Shown here piece after piece: positions 4,145 to 25,922 of a DNA stretch of 30,189 nt (within the stretch, counting starts at the first letter, position 1; every line of letters starts with the position of its first letter). Location: IMG/VR virus record IMGVR_UViG_2663762810_000004, positions 1 through 30,189 of that record. One strand, 5' to 3'. The notes under the pieces were generated by a model. That model had not been told where the DNA came from. It worked only from the letters and a program-made list of their open reading frames with translations, and ran no database searches. The position numbers and the translations under genes are program-made. This DNA is from a virus (lineage: Duplodnaviria; Heunggongvirae; Uroviricota; Caudoviricetes).

Positions 4145-4996
4145 ATGAAAATAGATAATCCCGAAAATCCACTTGAACGAAACGATTTTTCGATGGATGA
4201 CTTCCATCACTACTTAAGGGAGTTTGATAAAGCTGTATGTGAAGCGAATGCTGTAAGTCAGGGGGTTGGTGTGCGAATGGCTGAGGCTTTTAAAGGGTGG
4301 TCTACATACATTTTTTCACGAATCTGCATTCATGCTTCAATAATGATTTCCAACGTACCAAAATCAAGATGGGCTAAGCGGGATTATGACTTTTGGGATT
4401 TTTCGGCGATTGCACCTCATGTAAGAGCGATTCTGGAAGCTGAGTTATTGTTTATGTATTTATCTGAGAATCCAGATTCAACTGAGGAGTGGTCAGCAAA
4501 GTTGAATGTCATGCACATGAATGATTGTGTAAAGAGAATTGAGTTATTTACATCTAGTGATAATACGAAAGCATTGGATTTTTATCATGAACAAAAAGAT
4601 ATAATAACTGAGAGACTTAATAACAACCCTGTTTTTTTATCCCTTGAACAAGGAACCAGAAAACGTTGCTTGACTGGAAAAGCGCTTATGATTCCAAATC
4701 GAGATGAGTTATTGGTTAAACTGGGAAAAGATCCAAAGTCATTTAAAATAATGTTCGATTTTTTATCTCATTATACGCATATACTACCTATGTCATATTA
4801 TAAAATGGAGCCAAACGGAAGAGGAACTGGTTGTTTTAACAACTATGACTTTGGCTATATGATTATGGGGATGATTATTTGTACTGAATCCTTGACTAAG
4901 TGTACAGATAGATTAGTAGAACTTTTTCCTGATGTTAGACGGTTGCGAAAAGGAACTAAATCAAAATTCACGTTAGGTCCTAAACCTACAAAATAA
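4145..4996 (+). CDS. AT-rich hypothetical cargo protein (283 aa)
   Basis: Long ORF in a distinctly AT-rich block between the Q terminator and the lysis cassette. No recognisable family. Confidence 0.6.
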   Translation: MKIDNPENPLERNDFSMDDFHHYLREFDKAVCEANAVSQGVGVRMAEAFKGWSTYIFSRICIHASIMISNVPKSRWAKRDYDFWDFSAIAPHVRAILEAELLFMYLSENPDSTEEWSAKLNVMHMNDCVKRIELFTSSDNTKALDFYHEQKDIITERLNNNPVFLSLEQGTRKRCLTGKALMIPNRDELLVKLGKDPKSFKIMFDFLSHYTHILPMSYYKMEPNGRGTGCFNNYDFGYMIMGMIICTESLTKCTDRLVELFPDVRRLRKGTKSKFTLGPKPTK

Positions 4997-5214: not shown

Positions 5215-5877
5215 TTATGAAGAGAGCAGCATGACTTTTTCTTTTGCGGGCGAAGGTGACTGCTCTTTCAAAGGGAAAATTATAAATGCTATAAATGCAG
5301 TAAATAATACTATGAAAGCTAGCACTGTAACTTTCCTTGAAGATGATAGGGCTTTGTTATATTCCTTGGCTATTTTGTTCGTTATATGGATCTTAGTGCT
5401 ATTTATTTCATCTTTTAGTATGGATAATTTATTTATAAATTCCTGTGTTTCTTCTCGAGAGTAAAGTTCTGAAGCATCTCTTGGGGTTTCATGTGGATGC
5501 CGAGTATAACCAAGTATTTGTGGTATTAAATTACCATGCGATTGAACTACAGATTCATATTTCTTATAGCAAGCATTATCAAAAAATCTCATTCTTATGC
5601 TAAGTTCTCTGAGTTTGTCAACGTCTAGAGAAACTTGTTCGTTGGCAATAATTAAATCTCCGCGGTTTAATGTATTCTTGTGTTGAAAAATTAGTAAAAG
5701 CCATTCTGTATTATTGTAAAGCTTTTCAAGATTGGCATGTATATCAAGTCCGAGTTTTTCATATGCGGATAATTTGACCTCTTTTTCCTTTGCAGAAAGA
5801 GAAGATGAATAAGCCAGTAATCCGCTTATTATGGCAACAATAAATGTTCCTATAATGGTTAAGGTATTCGAGTCCAT
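5215..5877 (-). CDS. AT-rich hypothetical membrane protein. Start taken at the internal Met (MDSNTLTII) at 5875-5877; the ORF track extends to 5934.
   Basis: Hydrophobic segments at both the N terminus (IIGTFIVAIISGLLAY) and C terminus (VLAFIVLFTAFIAFIIF). Convergent with the 4145-4996 gene. Confidence 0.5.
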   Translation of the reverse strand: MDSNTLTIIGTFIVAIISGLLAYSSSLSAKEKEVKLSAYEKLGLDIHANLEKLYNNTEWLLLIFQHKNTLNRGDLIIANEQVSLDVDKLRELSIRMRFFDNACYKKYESVVQSHGNLIPQILGYTRHPHETPRDASELYSREETQEFINKLSILKDEINSTKIHITNKIAKEYNKALSSSRKVTVLAFIVLFTAFIAFIIFPLKEQSPSPAKEKVMLLSS

Positions 5878-5984
5878 TGTATTCTTCAAAAGTTGGTCAA
5901 AAATATATTGTAATATTTTAATGTATAAAATCAATCATTTCCCCTCATTCTGAGAGGACTCACAGCAACAAAGAGGGGGGCTAA

Positions 5985-7530: not shown

Positions 7531-7672
7531 GGTTATTGACACCGGCTGCGATTGGGTAAAACCCATCTACGGCACTGCTCATGATTGGGAAGTGCTGGAC
7601 AGGCAGACCAAGAAAGACATTCTTATGCATAACAAAGTGTGGATGTCAAACTGTGGCTCTATAACTTATTGA
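7451..7672 (+). CDS. o-spanin (Rz1-like outer-membrane lipoprotein), overlapped type
   Basis: Signal peptide with lipobox LIASC. Begins in the +1 frame inside the i-spanin gene and extends beyond it. Confidence 0.6.
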   Translation: MYNRLLTICLMTLLIASCAKTGHVRIEVIDTGCDWVKPIYGTAHDWEVLDRQTKKDILMHNKVWMSNCGSITY

Positions 7673-8322
7673 TTTTGTTTTTTGTTGTCTACCATATCAG
7701 GCAATGTGAAGGCATATAGAAGAAATACTTCGGTGAAACCAATCATTTCTTGAGCATCTTCTTTTGAAAATTCTTCATCAGAATGAACTGCTCCATTGGA
7801 ATCGATTCGAACTATATGTGCCCATTCCCTCATTTGATCTGTAATCAGTCCCTTAGCATGCAACATAGAAATCCGTTTAACCAATTTTTCATCTTTTGAG
7901 TCATTTCCCAGTAACTCCCGTGTAGCAATGTCCAAGACTTTACGGCAAAGCATAACGGATGTGTCGAAACGACAGCGCCCTAAGTTGTCTTTTGCTTCTA
8001 TGAAAGCCATAGCAGCACGTGGCGGAGTGTGTTCGGGGGCGTTAAGGAGGGTGGGTTTCGGGATGATATCAATCAACTGGTACTCAGTATTTCCAGGAAT
8101 GATTACGTTTACATCATTATTTTGCCTAGATTTTGCACGAGGTAAATAACCACCGGGATTATTCATTTTTACAATAGCAATACCTGATTGAAAACAGCTT
8201 CGACAACAAAATGCAATATTAACTAAAGGCCCGGCGTTGATACGCAGTTCTGCCCATCCTTCAAGGACAGCATTTTCCCTCAGACAATGTGGGCAAGTGA
8301 TATCGAAAGTGAGAATTCGCAT
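7666..8322 (-). CDS. DUF4145-like protein with N-terminal Cys cluster (candidate abortive-infection/defence gene). Start taken at MRILTFD (8320-8322).
   Basis: C-terminal region (RKVLDIATRELLG...HAKGLITDQMREWAHIVRIDSNGAVH) matches the recalled DUF4145 helical signature. N-terminal CPHC...CCRSC suggests a zinc ribbon. Lies in the moron slot between lysis and packaging genes. Confidence 0.6.
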   Translation of the reverse strand: MRILTFDITCPHCLRENAVLEGWAELRINAGPLVNIAFCCRSCFQSGIAIVKMNNPGGYLPRAKSRQNNDVNVIIPGNTEYQLIDIIPKPTLLNAPEHTPPRAAMAFIEAKDNLGRCRFDTSVMLCRKVLDIATRELLGNDSKDEKLVKRISMLHAKGLITDQMREWAHIVRIDSNGAVHSDEEFSKEDAQEMIGFTEVFLLYAFTLPDMVDNKKQNQ

Positions 8323-9067
8323 GACTCTACTCCATACATTAAAAGAAATTGAAAATGAATTACACAATGCACAACGACCTGAGTCTACACTCCTTCAACG
8401 ATATGAAGTATCGAATGAGATTAAAAAAAAGGAGTTTGTAGTCGCTTTGATCGGTAAACTGATAGAATTGGACCGCCGTCTCTATGTCACATCATTGAAG
8501 CCTTAGTTTCAATTTTACCGATTTATCGCTTAAGGGGTAGGACTTCAACACTACTAAGTGAGCATTGCAGCAGGCATTCAGGGGAATGCTGTGACAGTAG
8601 TTAGCTAGGGTAAACCGTTTGCGCCTGGGGATTTTACTTTGCGACGGAAAATTAAAAAACTATATGATTTCTTATCCCACTAGGATGTCTGCGGACTACT
8701 ACTGACTGTTTAGGCTATTACGAGGGGCTCAAACTCAACGTCTGGCATCAACGCAGAACTGAAAAAGTCGCCATGAATGTGGTTACGGTATTTGGTGGGA
8801 TATAAACGTACCTTCATTTCTAAGCTTGATAATCACCTTTGTCCGAATTGCCTACGCGATAGTCATGTAGTTTTAGTCATAACCGTTTACCCTATTGATG
8901 TCAAGATAAATTGGATAACACTGATGAATCGAACCTCTAAATCCTTTGATGGGCCACTCATAGCTGACTGGTTCAAAAAAGTGTTATCAATGGTATGATA
9001 AGTTGAGATGAAAGGTGTAAATGAACTATAATAATTCAACAGTTAATCTGAGAAAAATGGATTATGT

Positions 9068-9339: not shown

Positions 9340-9717
9340 ATGGCTACGGAAGATATTCAGGCTTTGTTATCTAAAGTTAATGCGTTAAGATTTGAAGATA
9401 AAAGAATAGAGAAGGAAACAGGAGAGATTGAAAATGAAATTCAGGCTCAATTTCTTCGTGATGGTAAAACAAGGAGTACATTAACCATAACATTTATGAG
9501 AGGCTTTTTTGGTCTTATCGTTTTTTCTTTTATATTTGTGATAGTTTATAACTATTGCGCAGTGCAATGGGTACTTCAATTACAAAGCAAAGGGCTCATG
9601 GAGGCTTCTAAAAGTATCGCACTACTTGAGTTAGATAAGGTGTTATCTATTATGGTTAGTGCGTTAGGAACATCTCTTGGGTTTATAATTGGCTATTATT
9701 TTAAAGACAAAAAATAA
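9340..9717 (+). CDS. AT-rich hypothetical membrane protein (second gene of the two-gene cargo operon)
   Basis: N-terminal predicted coiled-coil (EDIQALLSKVNALRFEDKRIEKETGEIENEIQAQ) followed by a TM helix (FFGLIVFSFIFVIVYNY). Confidence 0.5.
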   Translation: MATEDIQALLSKVNALRFEDKRIEKETGEIENEIQAQFLRDGKTRSTLTITFMRGFFGLIVFSFIFVIVYNYCAVQWVLQLQSKGLMEASKSIALLELDKVLSIMVSALGTSLGFIIGYYFKDKK

Positions 9718-18595: not shown

Positions 18596-18985
18596 ATGGG
18601 TGGGAAGAACAAGAAAAAGCAGAGCACGCCGTATGAAGAGCCGGATAACCTGAAATCGGTACAGGAACTGAGCTTCATTGACGCCATCGGGGAAGGGCCG
18701 ATCGAGGGACTGGTTAAGGGGATGCAAAGTATCCTTATCAACAACACCCCCCTGGTAAATGACGATGACAGCTACAACGTACACGGTGTCACAGCAATTT
18801 ATAACGCCGGTGAACAGGAGCAGACCCCGCTGGAGGGGTTTGAAGATACCGGCGTGGAGGTCATGGTCAACGCTGAGATCAAACAGGATGCCCCCATTAC
18901 CCGGACCATTTCGGCGCGGAAGATGTTGTGCTTACAGGCACTTGGCAGGCTATGGGGTATTACCGGGAGGCCTATTATCAACTAA
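18596..18985 (+). pseudogene. J: Tail tip/host-specificity protein J, N-terminal fragment only (about 106 aa of J, then unrelated tail)
   Basis: Residues 1-106 match the lambda gpJ N terminus (DNLKS.Q...DAI.EGPIEG ... AGEQEQTP.EGFE ... PITRTI). The frame then runs into unrelated sequence and stops; lambda J is over 1100 aa. Confidence 0.8.
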
Positions 18986-20174: not shown

Positions 20175-22232
20175 ATGCCCATTCTTGCACCAGGATTTTT
20201 GGGAGGCTCGTCCGCCGGGAATGGCGGCGGGCCGGTCTCTTCAGTTCAGCAGCCGGAATACTTCTATGTCATCCCGGTTGCCGGTCAGTCAAACGCGATG
20301 GCCTACGGCGAAGGGCTCCCCCTTCCAGACACGCTGGATGCGCCTCACCCGCGTATTAAACAGCTGGCCCGGCGCGCCACGGTAACGCCCGGCGGCGATG
20401 CCTGCAAATACAACGACATTATTCCTCTCGATCACTGTCCGCACGATGTTCAGGACATGAGCGGGATCAGCCACCCGAGAGCGGACCTCAGTAAAGGGCA
20501 ATATGGGTGTGTCAGCCAGACGCTGCACATTGCCAGAAAACTCCTGGCCTGGATCCCCGATAACGCAGGTATTCTGATGGTGCCCTGTTGTCGCGGTGGC
20601 TCTGCCTTCACGCAGGGAGTGGACGGCACTTTCAACGTTGTCAGTGGTGCCAGCGAAACCGCAACCCGATGGGGGGCGGGAAAGCCGTTGTACCGTGACC
20701 TGCTCACCCGCACGAAAGCAGCGCTCGACAGCAACCCGAAAAATATGCTGCTGGCGGTATGCTGGATGCAGGGTGAATTTGATATGACAGGGGCGGCTTA
20801 TGCACAGCAGCCTGCGCTGTTCGACGCTATGGTCAGGCAGTTCCGTACCGACCTGGCGGATTACGCGGGGCAGTGCCCGGACTTCCGGCCTGACAGTGTG
20901 CCGTGGCTGTGCGGGGACACCACGTACTACTGGAAGCGCAACTATCCCGCCCAGTACGATGCTGTTTATGGCGCGTACAGTAAAACCAGTGTCAGCGGCG
21001 TACATTTTGTGCCGTTCATGGTCAGCGAGGATGGCACGAACACCCCTACCAACGCCCCGGCTGAGGATCCGAATGTTCCGGCTGCGGGGTATTTCGGCTC
21101 GGCATCCCGTACTTCTGCCAACTGGACCAGCTCGATCCGCAACAGTCATTTCAGTTCGTGGGCCCGGCGAAACATCATCGCAGAACGTATGGCGGCGGCC
21201 ATTCTGCTGCACGCCGGGCGACGGTCACTGCTGGCGGCCCCGGTTAGTGGAAGTGCAGCGTCTTCAACGGGCGATACAGGCAATGTGGGAACGAGTACGC
21301 TGAAATACGCCCCTGTTGTGGAGGACGCCGGTTATAACGGGCGGCGCGGGGACGGGACGCCGGAGGCCCAGGGCTGGTCAGCCAGCGGCGGTAATTTTAA
21401 CGTGGCACCACACCCGGATGGTAAAGGGGGGCATGTGCTGCAGATCCGCAGAAAAGCCAGTGAAGTCTGGAAAATGGAACGGGCAACCCGACAGGCCGCT
21501 GATTTGTTACGGTATGGTGGCGAGGTGCAGTGCAACTTCCGGCTCGTTAATACACTGACGGCAAACCAGTTTGCTTTTGGCTGCTATCTGCTGGTGAATG
21601 AATCGGATGTTCCGGCCGGAGCCTCGTTACGGCTGAAAGCCGAGGGCACCACACCGGCGCTGATGAATTTCTTCATACAGACGAATGCTACAGATTTGAA
21701 TCTGATGATGCACTGCAAACCCGACAATATCAGGCTGGGTACGTACGGTGCGTACAATCAGGACTGGCATTCGTTCAGGGTCGTTTACCATGGCGGAAAC
21801 ACAGCCCGGGCCACGCTTTATCTCGATGGTGAGTCGAAGGGCGAGTTCACGCTGGCGTACTCGCCGGGGGCTGTCGATGCAGGCATGCTGCAACTGACAA
21901 ATATCACCTCCTCACCGACCTATGGATGCAATATTAAGGATTTTACCGTCAAAATTTACCGCGACGATGCCATAGTCAGTCTGCCTGACGACGATGTGTC
22001 CAGTCTGATTTATTTTCCGGCGGGGGAGCGCGGCGGGAAAGTGGTGTTACCGGATGCGAAAATCAGCGCAGGAAACACAGTGCAGGTGGTGGTGAACAAT
22101 GCCGGTATCATCGCCATTGAACCAGCAAGCAGCAACGTACTGCTTAACAATCTGCCTTCTTCTGCAACCACTGACAGAAGTGTCACGCTGGTTCAGACCA
22201 GTCTGGACGGGAAGACCTGGGTGATTACCTGA
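20175..22232 (+). CDS. Tail-fibre-region protein with an N-terminal SGNH hydrolase/sialate-O-acetylesterase-like domain and a C-terminal lectin-like region (NanS-p-like)
   Basis: N-terminal FYVIPVAGQSNAMAYGE (GQSN motif) and CWMQGEFDM are typical of the SGNH/SASA esterase family. 685 aa; the 3' end is duplicated downstream at about 25216-25383. Confidence 0.75.
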   Translation: MPILAPGFLGGSSAGNGGGPVSSVQQPEYFYVIPVAGQSNAMAYGEGLPLPDTLDAPHPRIKQLARRATVTPGGDACKYNDIIPLDHCPHDVQDMSGISHPRADLSKGQYGCVSQTLHIARKLLAWIPDNAGILMVPCCRGGSAFTQGVDGTFNVVSGASETATRWGAGKPLYRDLLTRTKAALDSNPKNMLLAVCWMQGEFDMTGAAYAQQPALFDAMVRQFRTDLADYAGQCPDFRPDSVPWLCGDTTYYWKRNYPAQYDAVYGAYSKTSVSGVHFVPFMVSEDGTNTPTNAPAEDPNVPAAGYFGSASRTSANWTSSIRNSHFSSWARRNIIAERMAAAILLHAGRRSLLAAPVSGSAASSTGDTGNVGTSTLKYAPVVEDAGYNGRRGDGTPEAQGWSASGGNFNVAPHPDGKGGHVLQIRRKASEVWKMERATRQAADLLRYGGEVQCNFRLVNTLTANQFAFGCYLLVNESDVPAGASLRLKAEGTTPALMNFFIQTNATDLNLMMHCKPDNIRLGTYGAYNQDWHSFRVVYHGGNTARATLYLDGESKGEFTLAYSPGAVDAGMLQLTNITSSPTYGCNIKDFTVKIYRDDAIVSLPDDDVSSLIYFPAGERGGKVVLPDAKISAGNTVQVVVNNAGIIAIEPASSNVLLNNLPSSATTDRSVTLVQTSLDGKTWVIT

Positions 22233-22239
22233 AAAAAAA

Positions 22240-22271
22240 GCCGCTTCTGTAACAGGAAAGACAGAAGCGGC
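22240..22271 (-). terminator. Hairpin terminator at the 3' end of the esterase gene; the U-tract is on the minus strand
   Basis: Perfect 11 bp stem GCCGCTTCTGT/ACAGAAGCGGC preceded on the plus strand by A8 (a T-run on the minus strand). Duplicated at about 25389-25420. Confidence 0.5.
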
Positions 22272-22335
22272 CATGTAGTGCTACTTGCGTTTTTATAAGG
22301 CTATTTTCGGTAGTAAATATGCAGCGTCCTCGTTA

Positions 22336-22920
22336 CAGAGGACACGTAATGTATTTCACCAGCAGGAAACGGAAGGCAAGAGATCGAGCTCTCATTTTTA
22401 ACAGAAATTTATTAGGACAAAATATTGACAGTTATCAGTAAAAAAGGCCGCTTCTACTTTTGGGGAGGAAGCGGCCGGTGAACTACGATGATAATAATGC
22501 TTTCTGACTACATATGTCTTATCGACACAACCCAGTCCTCGGGCAGGTATATTTATTTCACCTGCAGGAAAGAGAAAACAGTGATCAGTCTCTCATTTTT
22601 GAGAAAAATCATAGAAATAAATGATTGCGGGTAAAAAAAACGCTTCACCACAGTAAAGGATGAAGCGTGAGTCAGAATAAAAGTATTCATAAATCCACGT
22701 TTGCATTACTTCCTATACATACAGAAGTAAGGTTACTTATTTCACCTGCAGGGAAAAAAAGGCAAGGATTTGGATCTCATTTTTGAAGAGAACGCCGAAA
22801 AAATAGAATGAAAGGTAAAAAAAACGCTTCAACACAGGACAGGGTGAAGCGCCAGACATAATACAAATCCAATAAACGTAATTTTACTCTTTCAGCACTT
22901 CTGCTCCATACAGAAGTGCA
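22336..22920. repeat. Three tandem ~185-200 bp units of a periodic repeat family (conserved 5' TATTTCACC-[A/T]GCAGG, central CTCATTTTTGA, A-run plus hairpin), followed by a fourth unit fused to the DUF1353-like gene
   Basis: TATTTCACC motif at 22352, 22554, 22738 and 22926; TCTCATTTTTGA about 38 bp downstream of the first three; A7-8 plus hairpin (GGCCGCTTC/GAAGCGGCC, CGCTTCA/TGAAGCG) about 90 bp downstream. Confidence 0.7.
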
Positions 22921-22952
22921 ATATGTATTTCACCATCAGGCGGAACAAGTCA

Positions 22953-23333
22953 ATGAGTAAATTCACCACCCCGGCGATACTGGAAATGCTGGGTCATTAC
23001 AAATGGCGGGTGTACGAACCCTTCGAGTTTTACCTCTCGGATGACAACAGCGATGTGATTAAGGTCCCGGCGGGGTTTGTGACCGATCTGGCAAGCGTGC
23101 CCCGGATATTCTGGACATTCCTCCCACCTGATGGGCGGTATGCCAAAGCAGCTATCATTCATGATTACATGTACGATAATGCGCTACGGACAAAGAAAGA
23201 AGCCGATCTCATTTTTCTGGACGGGATGCGGGTACTGGGTGTGCCAGAGTGGAAGCGTTCGGTGATGTACCACGCTGTACGGATGTTTGGTAAAGGGCGG
23301 TATGCGCAGAATAGAACCCTTCCAGGTGTTTAG
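22953..23333 (+). CDS. DUF1353-like small protein, copy 1. Start taken at MSKFTT (22953).
   Basis: Conserved VPAGFVTDLASVPR ... AAIIHDYMYD pattern recalled for DUF1353. Near-identical second copy at 25923-26303 and a decayed copy at 24808. Confidence 0.6.
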   Translation: MSKFTTPAILEMLGHYKWRVYEPFEFYLSDDNSDVIKVPAGFVTDLASVPRIFWTFLPPDGRYAKAAIIHDYMYDNALRTKKEADLIFLDGMRVLGVPEWKRSVMYHAVRMFGKGRYAQNRTLPGV

Positions 23334-23423
23334 TCACCAGTTCCGGAAGATCAGCTCGGCTGAGTCGGGCTTCTATCGACTGAAATAACTTCTCCATTTC
23401 GTTCTTGTACATATGAATTCCAC

Positions 23424-23460
23424 AGAAAAAATGCCACTTATCTGGCTTCCAGATAAGTGG
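23424..23460 (-). terminator. Rho-independent terminator for the minus-strand cargo gene; also present in the duplicated copy at about 26394-26430
   Basis: Perfect palindrome CCACTTATCTGG-cttc-CAGATAAGTGG preceded on the plus strand by AAAAAAT (a U-tract on the minus strand). Confidence 0.5.
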
Positions 23461-23485
23461 CCAGTCAACGGTAGAACGCTTCTAC

Positions 23486-24370
23486 TTAGCTTTTTGTGAA
23501 ACGGTAAAATAAATTGGGCTCACTGACAATATACAAATTAAATTTGTCATCGATAGTAATGCCCTCTGCTTGTTTAATATCCTTTGTTAATCCCGACCAC
23601 CCTGCATCCAGATAGAGTCGATCGGTAATACGTCCCACAGGATTAACTTCAACCACTATTTTTGATTCATCTGAAAGTATCAGTAGTGAAGATGTTAGAG
23701 GATGGTAATGCAGCCCAGATACATCCTTCAAAGACGAAGTGATAACGGTTGGAAAAATTTTAATATGCGCATCATCATTCTGGGGAAATATTCTGCTAAT
23801 GATTATTGGTATTTTTTCCTTTGCTGAATATAAATGCTGTTTCTCTTTATCCCAGGCCAGTCCTTCCAGTCCGTTGTTTTTGGGAGTGGCGTAATCATTA
23901 AACTTAATCTTCGAAATGACAGTATAACTAAAAGCATGTAAGTCTAATTTTACCATCCAGGCTGTGCTGTTTTTCTCACTTCCTATATAGAATACATCTT
24001 TACCAACCCACTCTACAGCTTCTGTATCCTCAAATTCAGGTAAGGTCATACTTCCCACTCTGTCGCCTTCCTTTGTCAGCCATATCAGTTCTGGTGGGTT
24101 ATTAACAACAGCAAACAGAAGTTTGTGTTTATCTGACCAGGTCAGGCCAGACAGATTATTCTTTACACCTTCAACAGGTTTGCCCTCTATGTCTGCCCGA
24201 TATGCGCTAAGATTAAGGCTTGTTGGGATATCTTCATATTTTTCATATAATCGATAGATATATATTATATCCTTATAGATGTACATAAAACAAACCACAA
24301 AAATAGCCACAAAAATTAAATACCTTAAATATATGCTCAATATTTCATCCAAATAATAAAGTAAAGCCAA
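23486..24370 (-). CDS. AT-rich cargo protein with N-terminal hydrophobic segment and beta-rich body (possibly YjiK/SdiA-regulated-like propeller; unconfirmed)
   Basis: 294 aa ORF in a strongly AT-rich block flanked by the two DUF1353 repeat copies and followed by a terminator. N terminus LIFVAIFVVCFMYIY is hydrophobic; the true start may be a later Met. Confidence 0.6.
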   Translation of the reverse strand: MALLYYLDEILSIYLRYLIFVAIFVVCFMYIYKDIIYIYRLYEKYEDIPTSLNLSAYRADIEGKPVEGVKNNLSGLTWSDKHKLLFAVVNNPPELIWLTKEGDRVGSMTLPEFEDTEAVEWVGKDVFYIGSEKNSTAWMVKLDLHAFSYTVISKIKFNDYATPKNNGLEGLAWDKEKQHLYSAKEKIPIIISRIFPQNDDAHIKIFPTVITSSLKDVSGLHYHPLTSSLLILSDESKIVVEVNPVGRITDRLYLDAGWSGLTKDIKQAEGITIDDKFNLYIVSEPNLFYRFTKS

Positions 24371-24529
24371 TCATGACTTTGGAGATGATATTAATGAGGG
24401 GCGTTTGTATCCAACTGTTTCTAAAAATTTTTTAATATGAGCAATCAGTGTCGAAGTAACCCTGATAGAACAGTTTTCTTGGCTAAATACCAATTAAAGG
24501 AGGAGTACATAACGAAACCTCAGCCAGGT

Positions 24530-24780
24530 AGTATTATTTACAAATCCACGTTTGCATTACTTCCGCTAGATACAACAGTAAGATTATGTATTTCACCATC
24601 AGATGGCGAAAAACAATGATCAATGTCTCATTTTTGAATCATGATTCAGTTCAGGGGGGGGATTGATGAAAAAAAACCGCTCAATCATGGGAAAGAGCGG
24701 TCTGAAATCATTACGCCTACAATATTAATATGAACGCTACTAGATCCGGCAGATAAAGATAAGCCTGCTGGAGGTGATTT
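24530..24780. repeat. One unit of the same periodic repeat family, followed by a unit fused to the DUF1353 pseudogene
   Basis: TATTTCACC at 24589 and 24781; GTCTCATTTTTGA at 24625; A8 plus hairpin CCGCTC/GAGCGG at about 24669-24700. Confidence 0.6.
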
Positions 24781-24807
24781 TATTTCACCAGTAGATGGGA
24801 TATGTCA

Positions 24808-24965
24808 ATGAGTAAATTCACCACTCCGTCGATACTGGAAATGCTGGGTAATTACAAATGGCAGGTGTACGACCCTTCGAGTTTTACCTCTCAGATGATA
24901 ATGTCAGCGCCAGTGATGTGATTAAAGGTCCCGGCGGGATTTGTGACCGCCTTGGCTGGTTATAG
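24808..24965 (+). pseudogene. DUF1353-like gene 5' fragment, frameshifted/decayed
   Basis: Starts ATGAGTAAATTCACCAC (MSKFTTPSILEMLGNYKWQVY), matching the intact copies, then loses frame and runs into the tail-fibre remnant. Confidence 0.6.
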
Positions 24966-25383
24966 GGGGACAGAGCCCTGGTTTCAGAGTTGACAGTTTG
25001 CCGTGGTTGTGCCGAGGAGCACAACGTACTAATCATTGCAAAACGCATGTCTGGCGATGCAGGTATGCTGCAGCTGGCAAATACCACCTCGTAATCGACC
25101 TGTAGATGCAATATTAAGGATTTCAGAGTCAAAATTTACCGGGATGTGTAGTGATCAGTCGTTTTTTTCTGTGGGAAGCTGCCGCGGGAAATCAGTACTG
25201 CTGGATACAGAAACCAGCGTGGGGAATACGGTACAGGTGGTGGCGAACAATGCCGGTATCATCGCCATTGAACCAGCAAGCAGCAACGTACTGCTTAACA
25301 ATCTGCCTTCTTCTACAACCACTGACAGAAGTGTCACGCTGGTTCAGACCAGTCTGGACGGGAAGACCTGGGTGATTACCTGA
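24966..25383 (+). pseudogene. Decayed remnant of the esterase tail-fibre gene 3' end (internally deleted, with in-frame stops)
   Basis: Nucleotide similarity to 20885-20930 and 21880-22232 of the intact gene, with stops. The last 160 bp or so (VGNTVQVVANNAGIIAIEPASSNVLLNNLPSS...TWVIT) are near-identical to 22075-22232, as is the downstream hairpin. Confidence 0.6.
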
Positions 25384-25494
25384 AAAAAAAGCCGCTTCTG
25401 TAACAGGAAAGACAGAAGCGGCTAGGTAGTGCTACTTGCGTTTTTATAAAGATTATTTCAACAATGAAAAGTACAACCTGTTATATGCATCGCT

Positions 25495-25890
25495 CTCATC
25501 CCTGAAGGCATACAATGTATTTCACCTGCAGGAAAGGTAAGGCAAGGATCAAGCTCTCATTTTTGAGAAAAATCATAGAACCAAATGAATTTAGGGTAAA
25601 AAAACGCTTCGCCACAAGACAGGATGAAGAGTCAGTCAGAAAACAAGCATAATGAATGCAATCCTACTCATTCCGTACTGTTACTCCACATAGAGGTACA
25701 GTATGTGTTTCATCATCAGTCTGTGAATATCGTGGGTCAAGGAAAGATCAGTATCTCATTTCAGAGCATGAGATGCGTTGGAACAGATAAAAATATAAAA
25801 AAGACCGCTCAATCATGGGAGAGAGCGGTGGAAGAAATTTTGACAATATGACCTACAACCAGCAGGAAAAGAAGAAACCTGCTGGTGTAG
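25495..25890. repeat. Two units of the periodic repeat family, followed by a unit fused to DUF1353 copy 2
   Basis: Motif at 25518 (TATTTCACC), a variant at about 25703 (TGTGTTTCATC) and 25896; CTCTCATTTTTGA at 25555; hairpins at about 25598-25625 and 25795-25827. Confidence 0.6.
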
Positions 25891-25922
25891 AGATTTATTT
25901 CACCAGCAGACGGAATAAGTCA

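Follow-up and report, generated by a model that had tools for sequence, protein, structure and literature searches.

The PF06977 family ("SdiA-regulated") includes YjiK of Escherichia coli, SrgB of the Salmonella virulence plasmid pSLT and rOrf1 at the edge of the locus of enterocyte effacement (LEE). To our knowledge, no member of this family has a known biochemical activity or cellular role, and SrgB itself is uncharacterised. Here, we describe a member encoded on the minus strand (23486..24370) of a 30,189-nt stretch of Caudoviricetes DNA (IMG/VR record IMGVR_UViG_2663762810_000004, positions 1 to 30,189). The whole stretch is referred to as the window. We consider it likely that the gene is a horizontally acquired moron, carried by a defective lambdoid prophage that sits at the icd (e14) site of E. 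coli, and that it encodes a membrane-anchored, five-bladed β-propeller of the PF06977 family. This is a statement about structure and genomic context.

The structure of one relative is available. YjiK of E. coli CFT073, whose C-terminal domain has been crystallized (PDB 3QQZ), is the sole solved relative of the window protein found by sequence (E 5.7e-44). SrgB (PSLT010) matches PF06977 with 281.9 bits and is 35% identical to the window protein over 245 residues (E 1e-35), and its gene is also carried by a mobile element. However, srgB belongs to the pefI-srgC operon, which is regulated by SdiA and N-acyl homoserine lactone (AHL) and includes the DsbA paralogue srgA, rck and the pef fimbrial genes, whereas the window gene is solitary. 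The regulation of srgB by SdiA is experimentally established (PMC11619404). It gave the family its name, and srgB is the sole member for which it has been demonstrated. For the window gene, the term "SdiA-regulated", which the preliminary description of this DNA used, is the name of a family only and does not imply control by SdiA. The proposed E. coli SdiA box (AAAAGN8GAAAA) is not found near the gene, and its matches overall are at chance level. According to a review, this box is also absent from the known Salmonella targets (PMC12086679). Another gene of pSLT, orf6, annotated as "putative outer membrane protein", was considered and proved unrelated.

The LEE protein rOrf1 (ECs_4591) matches PF06977 with 180.5 bits and is 33% identical to the window protein (E 9e-32). 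It too derives from a lone gene that was gained by horizontal transfer and is situated at the edge of a mobile element, but this element is a type III secretion system (T3SS) island, in which the gene stands beside espG. An interaction between rOrf1 and EspD has been reported from a yeast two-hybrid assay (PMC1084347).

On the basis of a review's table, its annotation and its gene neighbourhood, CarP (PA0327) of Pseudomonas aeruginosa probably belongs among these relatives as well. The BLAST table of the review lists CarP as homologous to "SdiA-regulated domain-containing proteins" (PMC10574481), and the protein is annotated as a Ca2+-regulated β-propeller of the inner membrane (PMC12802237). 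Loss of CarP disturbs Ca2+ homeostasis, and its homologues in Pseudomonas bear the annotation of SdiA-regulated domain proteins (PMC10574481, PMC12802237). As in many other Proteobacteria, the genes for the Pseudomonas homologues of the window protein (31–39% identity) are chromosomal and often occur as tandem pairs beside rpiA and ilvA, which fits the neighbourhood of CarP. Unlike the window gene, carP belongs to the core genome, is controlled by CarSR/BqsSR and has a phenotype in Ca2+ homeostasis. We notice that, at 25 of 80 loci (mostly from Pseudomonas), a second PF06977 paralogue lies immediately upstream on the same strand, beside rpiA/ilvA. This arrangement hints at a heteromeric pair in the CarP neighbourhood. 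Apart from the tandem paralogues and the rpiA/ilvA synteny, the neighbour genes at these 80 loci, which come from diverse bacteria, gave no functional clue.

The nearest relatives of the window protein form an island-borne clade of six proteins from Citrobacter, Salmonella and E. coli. They are encoded in acquired DNA and share 56–65% identity with the window protein over the full length, including the predicted N-terminal anchor. Close homologues adjoin TibC/AIDA autotransporters with CaiF/GrlA and GerE regulators, a type IVb pilus operon, a SPATE autotransporter with fimbriae, or chaperone-usher fimbriae with AraC regulators or DsbA paralogues. The window gene adds to this recurrent and unexplained association of the PF06977 family with mobile adhesin and secretion loci.

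Family membership and predicted architecture

The window protein is a full-length member of the PF06977 (YjiK/SrgB/rOrf1) family. The profile matches with an E value of 4.9e-72 and 242.5 bits, compared with a gathering cutoff of 21, and the alignment places residues 51–292 on positions 3–249 of the 249-position model. The protein has matches in about 924 clusters (50% identity). NCBIfam lacks a corresponding model, and no match was found in PHROGs or PADLOC at E ≤ 0.001. The preliminary description had guessed at a relationship to the YjiK/SdiA-regulated propellers. This guess is borne out by PF06977 and 3QQZ. The NHL-repeat families, which it also named for a search, are not supported, as five blades are modelled and not six, and the Pfam search for NHL repeats (PF01436) returned no match. 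The "NHL-like six-blade" picture of the family comes from the older literature (PMC1084347). A weak similarity of blade motifs connects the window protein with the PknD sensor, and its resemblance to NHL proteins is only distant.

The residues that define the family are conserved in the window protein. In an alignment of 79 sequences with 28–65% identity, including SrgB and rOrf1, all 11 family-invariant columns are kept (S74, E117, E132, N165, E169, E185, D216, E269, G270, E284 and P285 in the window numbering), and seven of these 11 residues are carboxylates. Among the 19 closest homologues, 76 columns are invariant, of which the window protein keeps 75. The lone departure is P266K. This substitution was considered as a suspicious change and dropped, because YjiK itself has a lysine at this position.

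The AlphaFold2 (AF2) model contains 20 β-strands, consistent with the β-rich body noted before. The propeller domain extends over residues 54–293 (23492..24211, minus strand) and, according to the model, is five-bladed, not six-bladed as NHL domains are. The invariant residues sit at the starts of the innermost strands or at the ends of the second strands of successive blades. Because of this strand register, the seven invariant carboxylates, together with Ser74 and Asn165, should cluster on one face around the central channel. Such an acidic face suggests a metal-dependent site, probably for Ca2+, which may bind an envelope component or act on it as a hydrolytic or catalytic centre. The model thus revises the fold of the family to five predicted blades with a putative ring of invariant carboxylates.

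A hydrophobic segment precedes the propeller at about residues 16–32 (R-YLIFVAIFVVCFMYIY-KD; 24275..24325, minus strand) and is predicted to be a membrane signal-anchor. A hydrophobic N terminus had been recognised from the translation, and the Kyte-Doolittle score indeed reaches its maximum of 2.33 over residues 11–29. AF2 predicts a helix over residues 2–45. The combination of K/R residues and a hydrophobic stretch at the N terminus is common to 19 homologues, in which the pattern reads M-x3-Y-L-K/R-R, about 17 hydrophobic residues and then "YIREDIRYLYRLYEKY". The window open reading frame (ORF) encodes the matching pattern "SIYLRYLIFVAIFVVCFMYIYKDIIYIYRLYEKY". We infer that the helix holds the protein in the inner membrane and that the propeller lies in the periplasm. 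This topology matches the annotation of CarP, and the crystallized part of YjiK is the C-terminal domain alone.

The maximal ORF lies exactly where it had been placed, on the strand opposite to the structural genes, and the three peptide strings quoted from its translation are located at residues 72, 96 and 127. It is 294 codons long if the first TTG is taken as its beginning; an in-frame TGA (24371–24373) lies directly upstream, and the stop codon is TAA (23486–23488). The ATG of the homologues aligns with an ATA in the window (24343). The codon following it is a TTG (24340), preceded by GGAT, while the upstream ATG used by two homologues is a TTG in the window (24370). From the start position of the close homologues, TTG 24340 (codon 11) is most likely the start, which would give a coding sequence of 284 aa (23486..24340, minus strand). 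Database annotations start instead at GTG 24310, ATT 24316 or ATG 24286, and we notice that the records derived from NCBI accordingly carry three start codons, with products of 266, 274 or 276 aa. Each of these starts cuts into or removes the predicted anchor, so the annotated N termini in public records are probably wrong.

The gene as cargo of a defective prophage

The element in the window is a defective lambdoid prophage. Its left end consists of an integrase and an excisionase gene (int/xis), and its right flank (icd fragment, iraM, ymgK/L and ycgX) is 95–96% identical to all E. coli genomes. With int/xis at the left end and the icd flank at the right end, the insertion can be placed at the icd (e14) attachment site of E. 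coli. The prophage retains Q, holin, endolysin, terminase, portal, protease and capsid genes, and the tail-tip genes L, K and I. J is cut to 129 aa (18596–18985), and the capsid ORF has merely 263 aa. The tape-measure, major-tail and immunity/repressor/replication genes are missing, with no repressor or replication genes between xis and Q.

The gene is located in the tail-distal slot, between tail-fibre and chaperone genes on one side and the right prophage end on the other. Its composition is foreign to this region, with a GC content of 36.3% (33% at third codon positions, GC3), compared with 57.8% for the tail fibre, 50.9% for the DUF1353 gene and 44.4% for Ant. The preliminary description had called it the lowest-GC long ORF of the tail-distal region, which agrees with these values. 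The statement does not extend to the whole window, where two other ORFs are more AT-rich, for example 5215–5934 at 32.2%.

A strong intrinsic terminator with a 13-bp stem and a U run (23423..23461, minus strand) follows the gene, its stem (23433–23461) lying 25 nt past the stop codon. The 69-nt terminator region, in which a further small hairpin of 6 bp occurs, has a folding energy of −26.3 kcal/mol (z −3.9 compared with shuffles). The gene had been credited with a terminator of its own. The terminator is present, but it is not private to the gene, being a copy of the neighbour's. Its twin (26404–26432) ends the isrK/C4-Ant transcript. Upstream of the gene, a consensus scan gave a weak σ70-like promoter candidate (TGGATA, a 17-nt spacer and TATCAT, with 9 of 12 matches; 24385..24413, minus strand). 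In a lysogen, transcription would begin in the AT-rich DNA upstream of the gene, proceed independently of the phage late operon and end at the duplicated terminator.

Other prophages carry well-known lysogenic-conversion genes in such slots. In a different prophage at the icd site, that of E. coli PCP07014, gtrA, gtrB and a glucosyltransferase gene occupy the equivalent tail-distal slot, on the opposite strand and before attR, and form their own transcription unit according to the annotation. In Gifsy-2, sseI likewise lies in the slot downstream of the tail-fibre genes. The functions of gtrABC (O-antigen glucosylation) and sseI (T3SS effector) are known, unlike that of the window gene. In the PCP07014 prophage, the slot is taken by gtrA, a GT2 glycosyltransferase gene and a glucosyltransferase gene, and the prophage also carries an ISEc8 and a frameshifted HumD gene.

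Together with about 165 bp of upstream DNA, the gene forms a unique cassette of about 1.06 kb (23478..24534). On one side of it, the repeated DNA ends at 23477 (corresponding to 26448 in the second copy), and on the other side repeat-like DNA resumes at 24535. The cassette junctions are identical in independent assemblies. In NCBI, an identical protein (in the 274-aa annotation) is named "SdiA-regulated domain-containing protein [Escherichia coli]" and falls in a cluster of 21 near-identical sequences, of which all those with an organism name are from E. coli. The same cassette is present at the same locus in at least 8 assemblies. These differ in their deletions of structural genes, and all keep the cassette, both DUF1353 copies and Ant. 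A 99% allele spanning both cassette junctions was found on two short Logan contigs. The cassette occurs in none of 5,426 complete RefSeq E. coli genomes. When the DUF1353-Ant module without the cassette was sought in RefSeq E. coli, only its C4/isrK RNA part was common. The next relative of the protein is from Citrobacter amalonaticus (65% identity), and scanning GTDB species representatives and IMG/VR for peptide patterns of this one protein revealed no close relative.

Outside this E. coli locus, the family is rare in phages. None of 50,697 phage records matched the locus by megablast. At the protein level, the relatives in this collection are one from Pseudomonas phage Y10 (35% identity), a genuine phage genome, and one on a 1,468-nt fragment labelled "Salmonella phage S.Kent 1-2-1" (31%); the other two matches are bacterial contigs. 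In enterobacteria, members of the family are found on mobile DNA, and a relative is carried by 692 plasmid records.

In location, strand, GC content and terminator, the window gene has the features of a moron, and a weak candidate stands for the promoter. We regard it as cargo because of its low GC content, its opposite strand, the terminator, the lack of a PHROG or PADLOC family, its near-absence from phages and the gtr and sseI occupants of the slot. Both halves of the earlier interpretation, the cargo slot and the family, are supported by our results. As an annotation this is correct but routine, as the family has been recognised since 2001–2005, a structure has been solved and NCBI already names the protein accordingly. 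Our findings document a PF06977 gene as prophage cargo.

Possible roles of the encoded protein

Any specific cellular role for the window protein is doubtful at present. Our best guess is that it would act as an accessory or conditioning factor of the envelope, like those found alongside adhesin, pilus or secretion loci gained by horizontal transfer. A wider proposal includes SrgB, rOrf1, the island clade and the prophage copy. It holds that PF06977 propellers are dedicated periplasmic, metal-dependent accessories, which condition the envelope for mobile surface organelles (autotransporters, chaperone-usher fimbriae, type IVb pili and T3SS), often with DsbA paralogues. The prophage copy would then be a true conversion factor altering adhesion, Ca2+ handling or phage adsorption. 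We put this wider proposal forward as speculation with a rather low probability. If an activity were found for the family, YjiK, SrgB, rOrf1 and CarP would all gain a function together.

Several observations weigh against our reading of the gene. Secretion and virulence were unaffected when rOrf1 was deleted (Pallen et al., PMC1084347). There is no adhesin locus beside the window copy, nor any of the partners of the island clade. The match to a promoter is weak, and sites like it are no commoner in the region than in shuffles. The clustering of acidic residues on one face was deduced from the strand register of the model and not from coordinates. At the 5′ end, both ATGs conserved among homologues are mutated (ATG to TTG at 24370 and ATG to ATA at 24343). 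The starts that would include the anchor are limited to TTG, GTG or ATT, none of which has a good Shine-Dalgarno sequence. Four nonsynonymous changes and one synonymous change set the sole divergent allele apart, which gives no sign of purifying selection, in a tiny sample. A dN/dS test failed, as the alleles are only five substitutions apart.

The last of these points also speak for the alternative that survives best, in which the gene is carried along silently while decaying into a pseudogene. In that case, the family ATG has been lost, and the gene persists since the prophage remnant is young and clonal. The mutated start codons, the lack of a candidate start with a good Shine-Dalgarno sequence and the ratio of nonsynonymous to synonymous changes are all in line with it, and so is the disagreement of the annotation pipelines on a start, each choice of which cuts the anchor. 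Moreover, the surrounding prophage is heavily deleted, and the copies of the gene are nearly identical, consistent with recent common descent. However, a frame of 294 stop-free codons stays open in AT-rich DNA, with a chance of about 1e-10 at the gene's own base composition, and the family-invariant and nearly all clade-invariant positions are intact. TTG is usable as a start and here stands directly beside the ancestral start position, and the homologues are likewise without strong Shine-Dalgarno sequences. Independent deletions have hit structural genes and never the cassette in the 8 assemblies examined. We judge silent passage to be unlikely, and retain it mainly because the start at TTG 24340 is unproven.

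The invariant carboxylates could also belong to a periplasmic enzyme, either of the five-bladed glutaminyl-cyclase type or a Ca-dependent, phytase-like hydrolase, which would modify exported proteins or phosphorylated envelope compounds. Besides the prevalence of carboxylates among the invariant residues, a borderline match to PF13449 ("esterase-like activity of phytase"; 27.7 bits with a cutoff of 27.6) points in this direction. On the other hand, glutaminyl cyclases are only 13–15% identical to the window protein, and the profile search reaches the cyclase-type structure 3MBR at E 0.81 only. The literature found reports no enzymatic activity for any PF06977 protein. An enzyme of this kind appears improbable to us.

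Still less probable is a factor for superinfection exclusion or receptor modification, in which the periplasmic propeller would change the envelope so that other phages adsorb poorly. The tail-distal moron position is typical for such functions, as with gtr at the same site elsewhere. A 2026 study associated a missense change in a yjiK paralogue of Salmonella ("yjiK_2") with lost Jerseyvirus adsorption, without genetic confirmation (PMC13216507). However, this evidence consists of one uncomplemented single-nucleotide polymorphism, no PADLOC defence model matched the window protein, and most members of the family are chromosomal, plasmid- or island-borne and not encoded by phages.

A phage structural or receptor-binding protein, which might be considered as β-propellers occur in some tail fibres and baseplates, is effectively refuted by the strand opposite to the late operon, the predicted membrane-anchor N terminus, the full-length match to a bacterial family whose relatives are overwhelmingly non-phage, and the lack of a PHROG match.

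Repeated tail-fibre modules and other features of the element

The cargo cassette is surrounded by copies of a tail-fibre module. Module copy A (21871..23477, plus strand) contains the 3′ end of the tail-fibre gene, short repeat relics, a DUF1353 tail-assembly-chaperone gene and a terminator, as defined by four direct repeats, pairwise alignment, Pfam and PHROG. Its repeat stops 8 nt from the stop codon of the cargo gene. On the other side of the cassette, a partial relic module (24535..24956, plus strand), defined by five repeats, consists of one repeat unit and the truncated 5′ part of a third DUF1353 copy. It is followed by module copy C (25051..26448, plus strand), with a tail-fibre 3′ fragment, a repeat relic, the second DUF1353 gene and a terminator, as defined by repeats and pairwise alignment. 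Copies A and C are 84% identical overall and more than 90% identical in the genes.

We observed 8 copies of a 17-nt motif (TRTATTTCACCNNCAGR) within 22350–25910, all on the plus strand, where 0.16 are expected. This motif heads every copy of the DUF1353 gene and each of several repeat units of about 130 nt. The units also hold "GATC..CTCTCATTTTTGAGAAAAAT" and an A-run followed by a GC hairpin. They look like internally deleted copies of DUF1353, left as scars of serial exchange of tail-fibre modules. An invertible segment or a site-specific cassette was considered for the flanking repeats and dismissed, as the repeats are direct, no invertase gene lies nearby and the short units resemble internally deleted DUF1353 copies. 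We propose that the cargo gene arrived with a tail-fibre/chaperone module through recombination between related phages. In the simplest history, such phages would have replaced their tail-fibre modules serially, and one of them would already have had the gene located downstream of its own module.

At the right end of the prophage, isrK (79 bits) and a C4 antisense RNA (75 bits) were found at 27454–27643 on the minus strand, directly upstream of Ant (26748–27407, minus strand). Ant is an anti-repressor-type protein with Bro-N and P22_AR_C domains, and the whole resembles the P1 immI and Gifsy-1 IsrK modules.

Further AT-rich ORFs (32–40% GC) are scattered among Q, the lysis genes and the terminase, at 4145–4996 (plus), 5215–5934 (minus), 7666–8367 (minus) and 9340–9717 (plus). 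They have no family or weak matches (DUF5677 below the cutoff, and DUF4145), and none matched PADLOC. These four ORFs are probable further morons.

The tail-fibre/spike protein of the element (685 aa; 20175–22232, plus strand) contains a SASA (sialate O-acetylesterase-like) domain and DUF6645, and matches phrog_143. Its SASA domain suggests a receptor-destroying esterase fibre.
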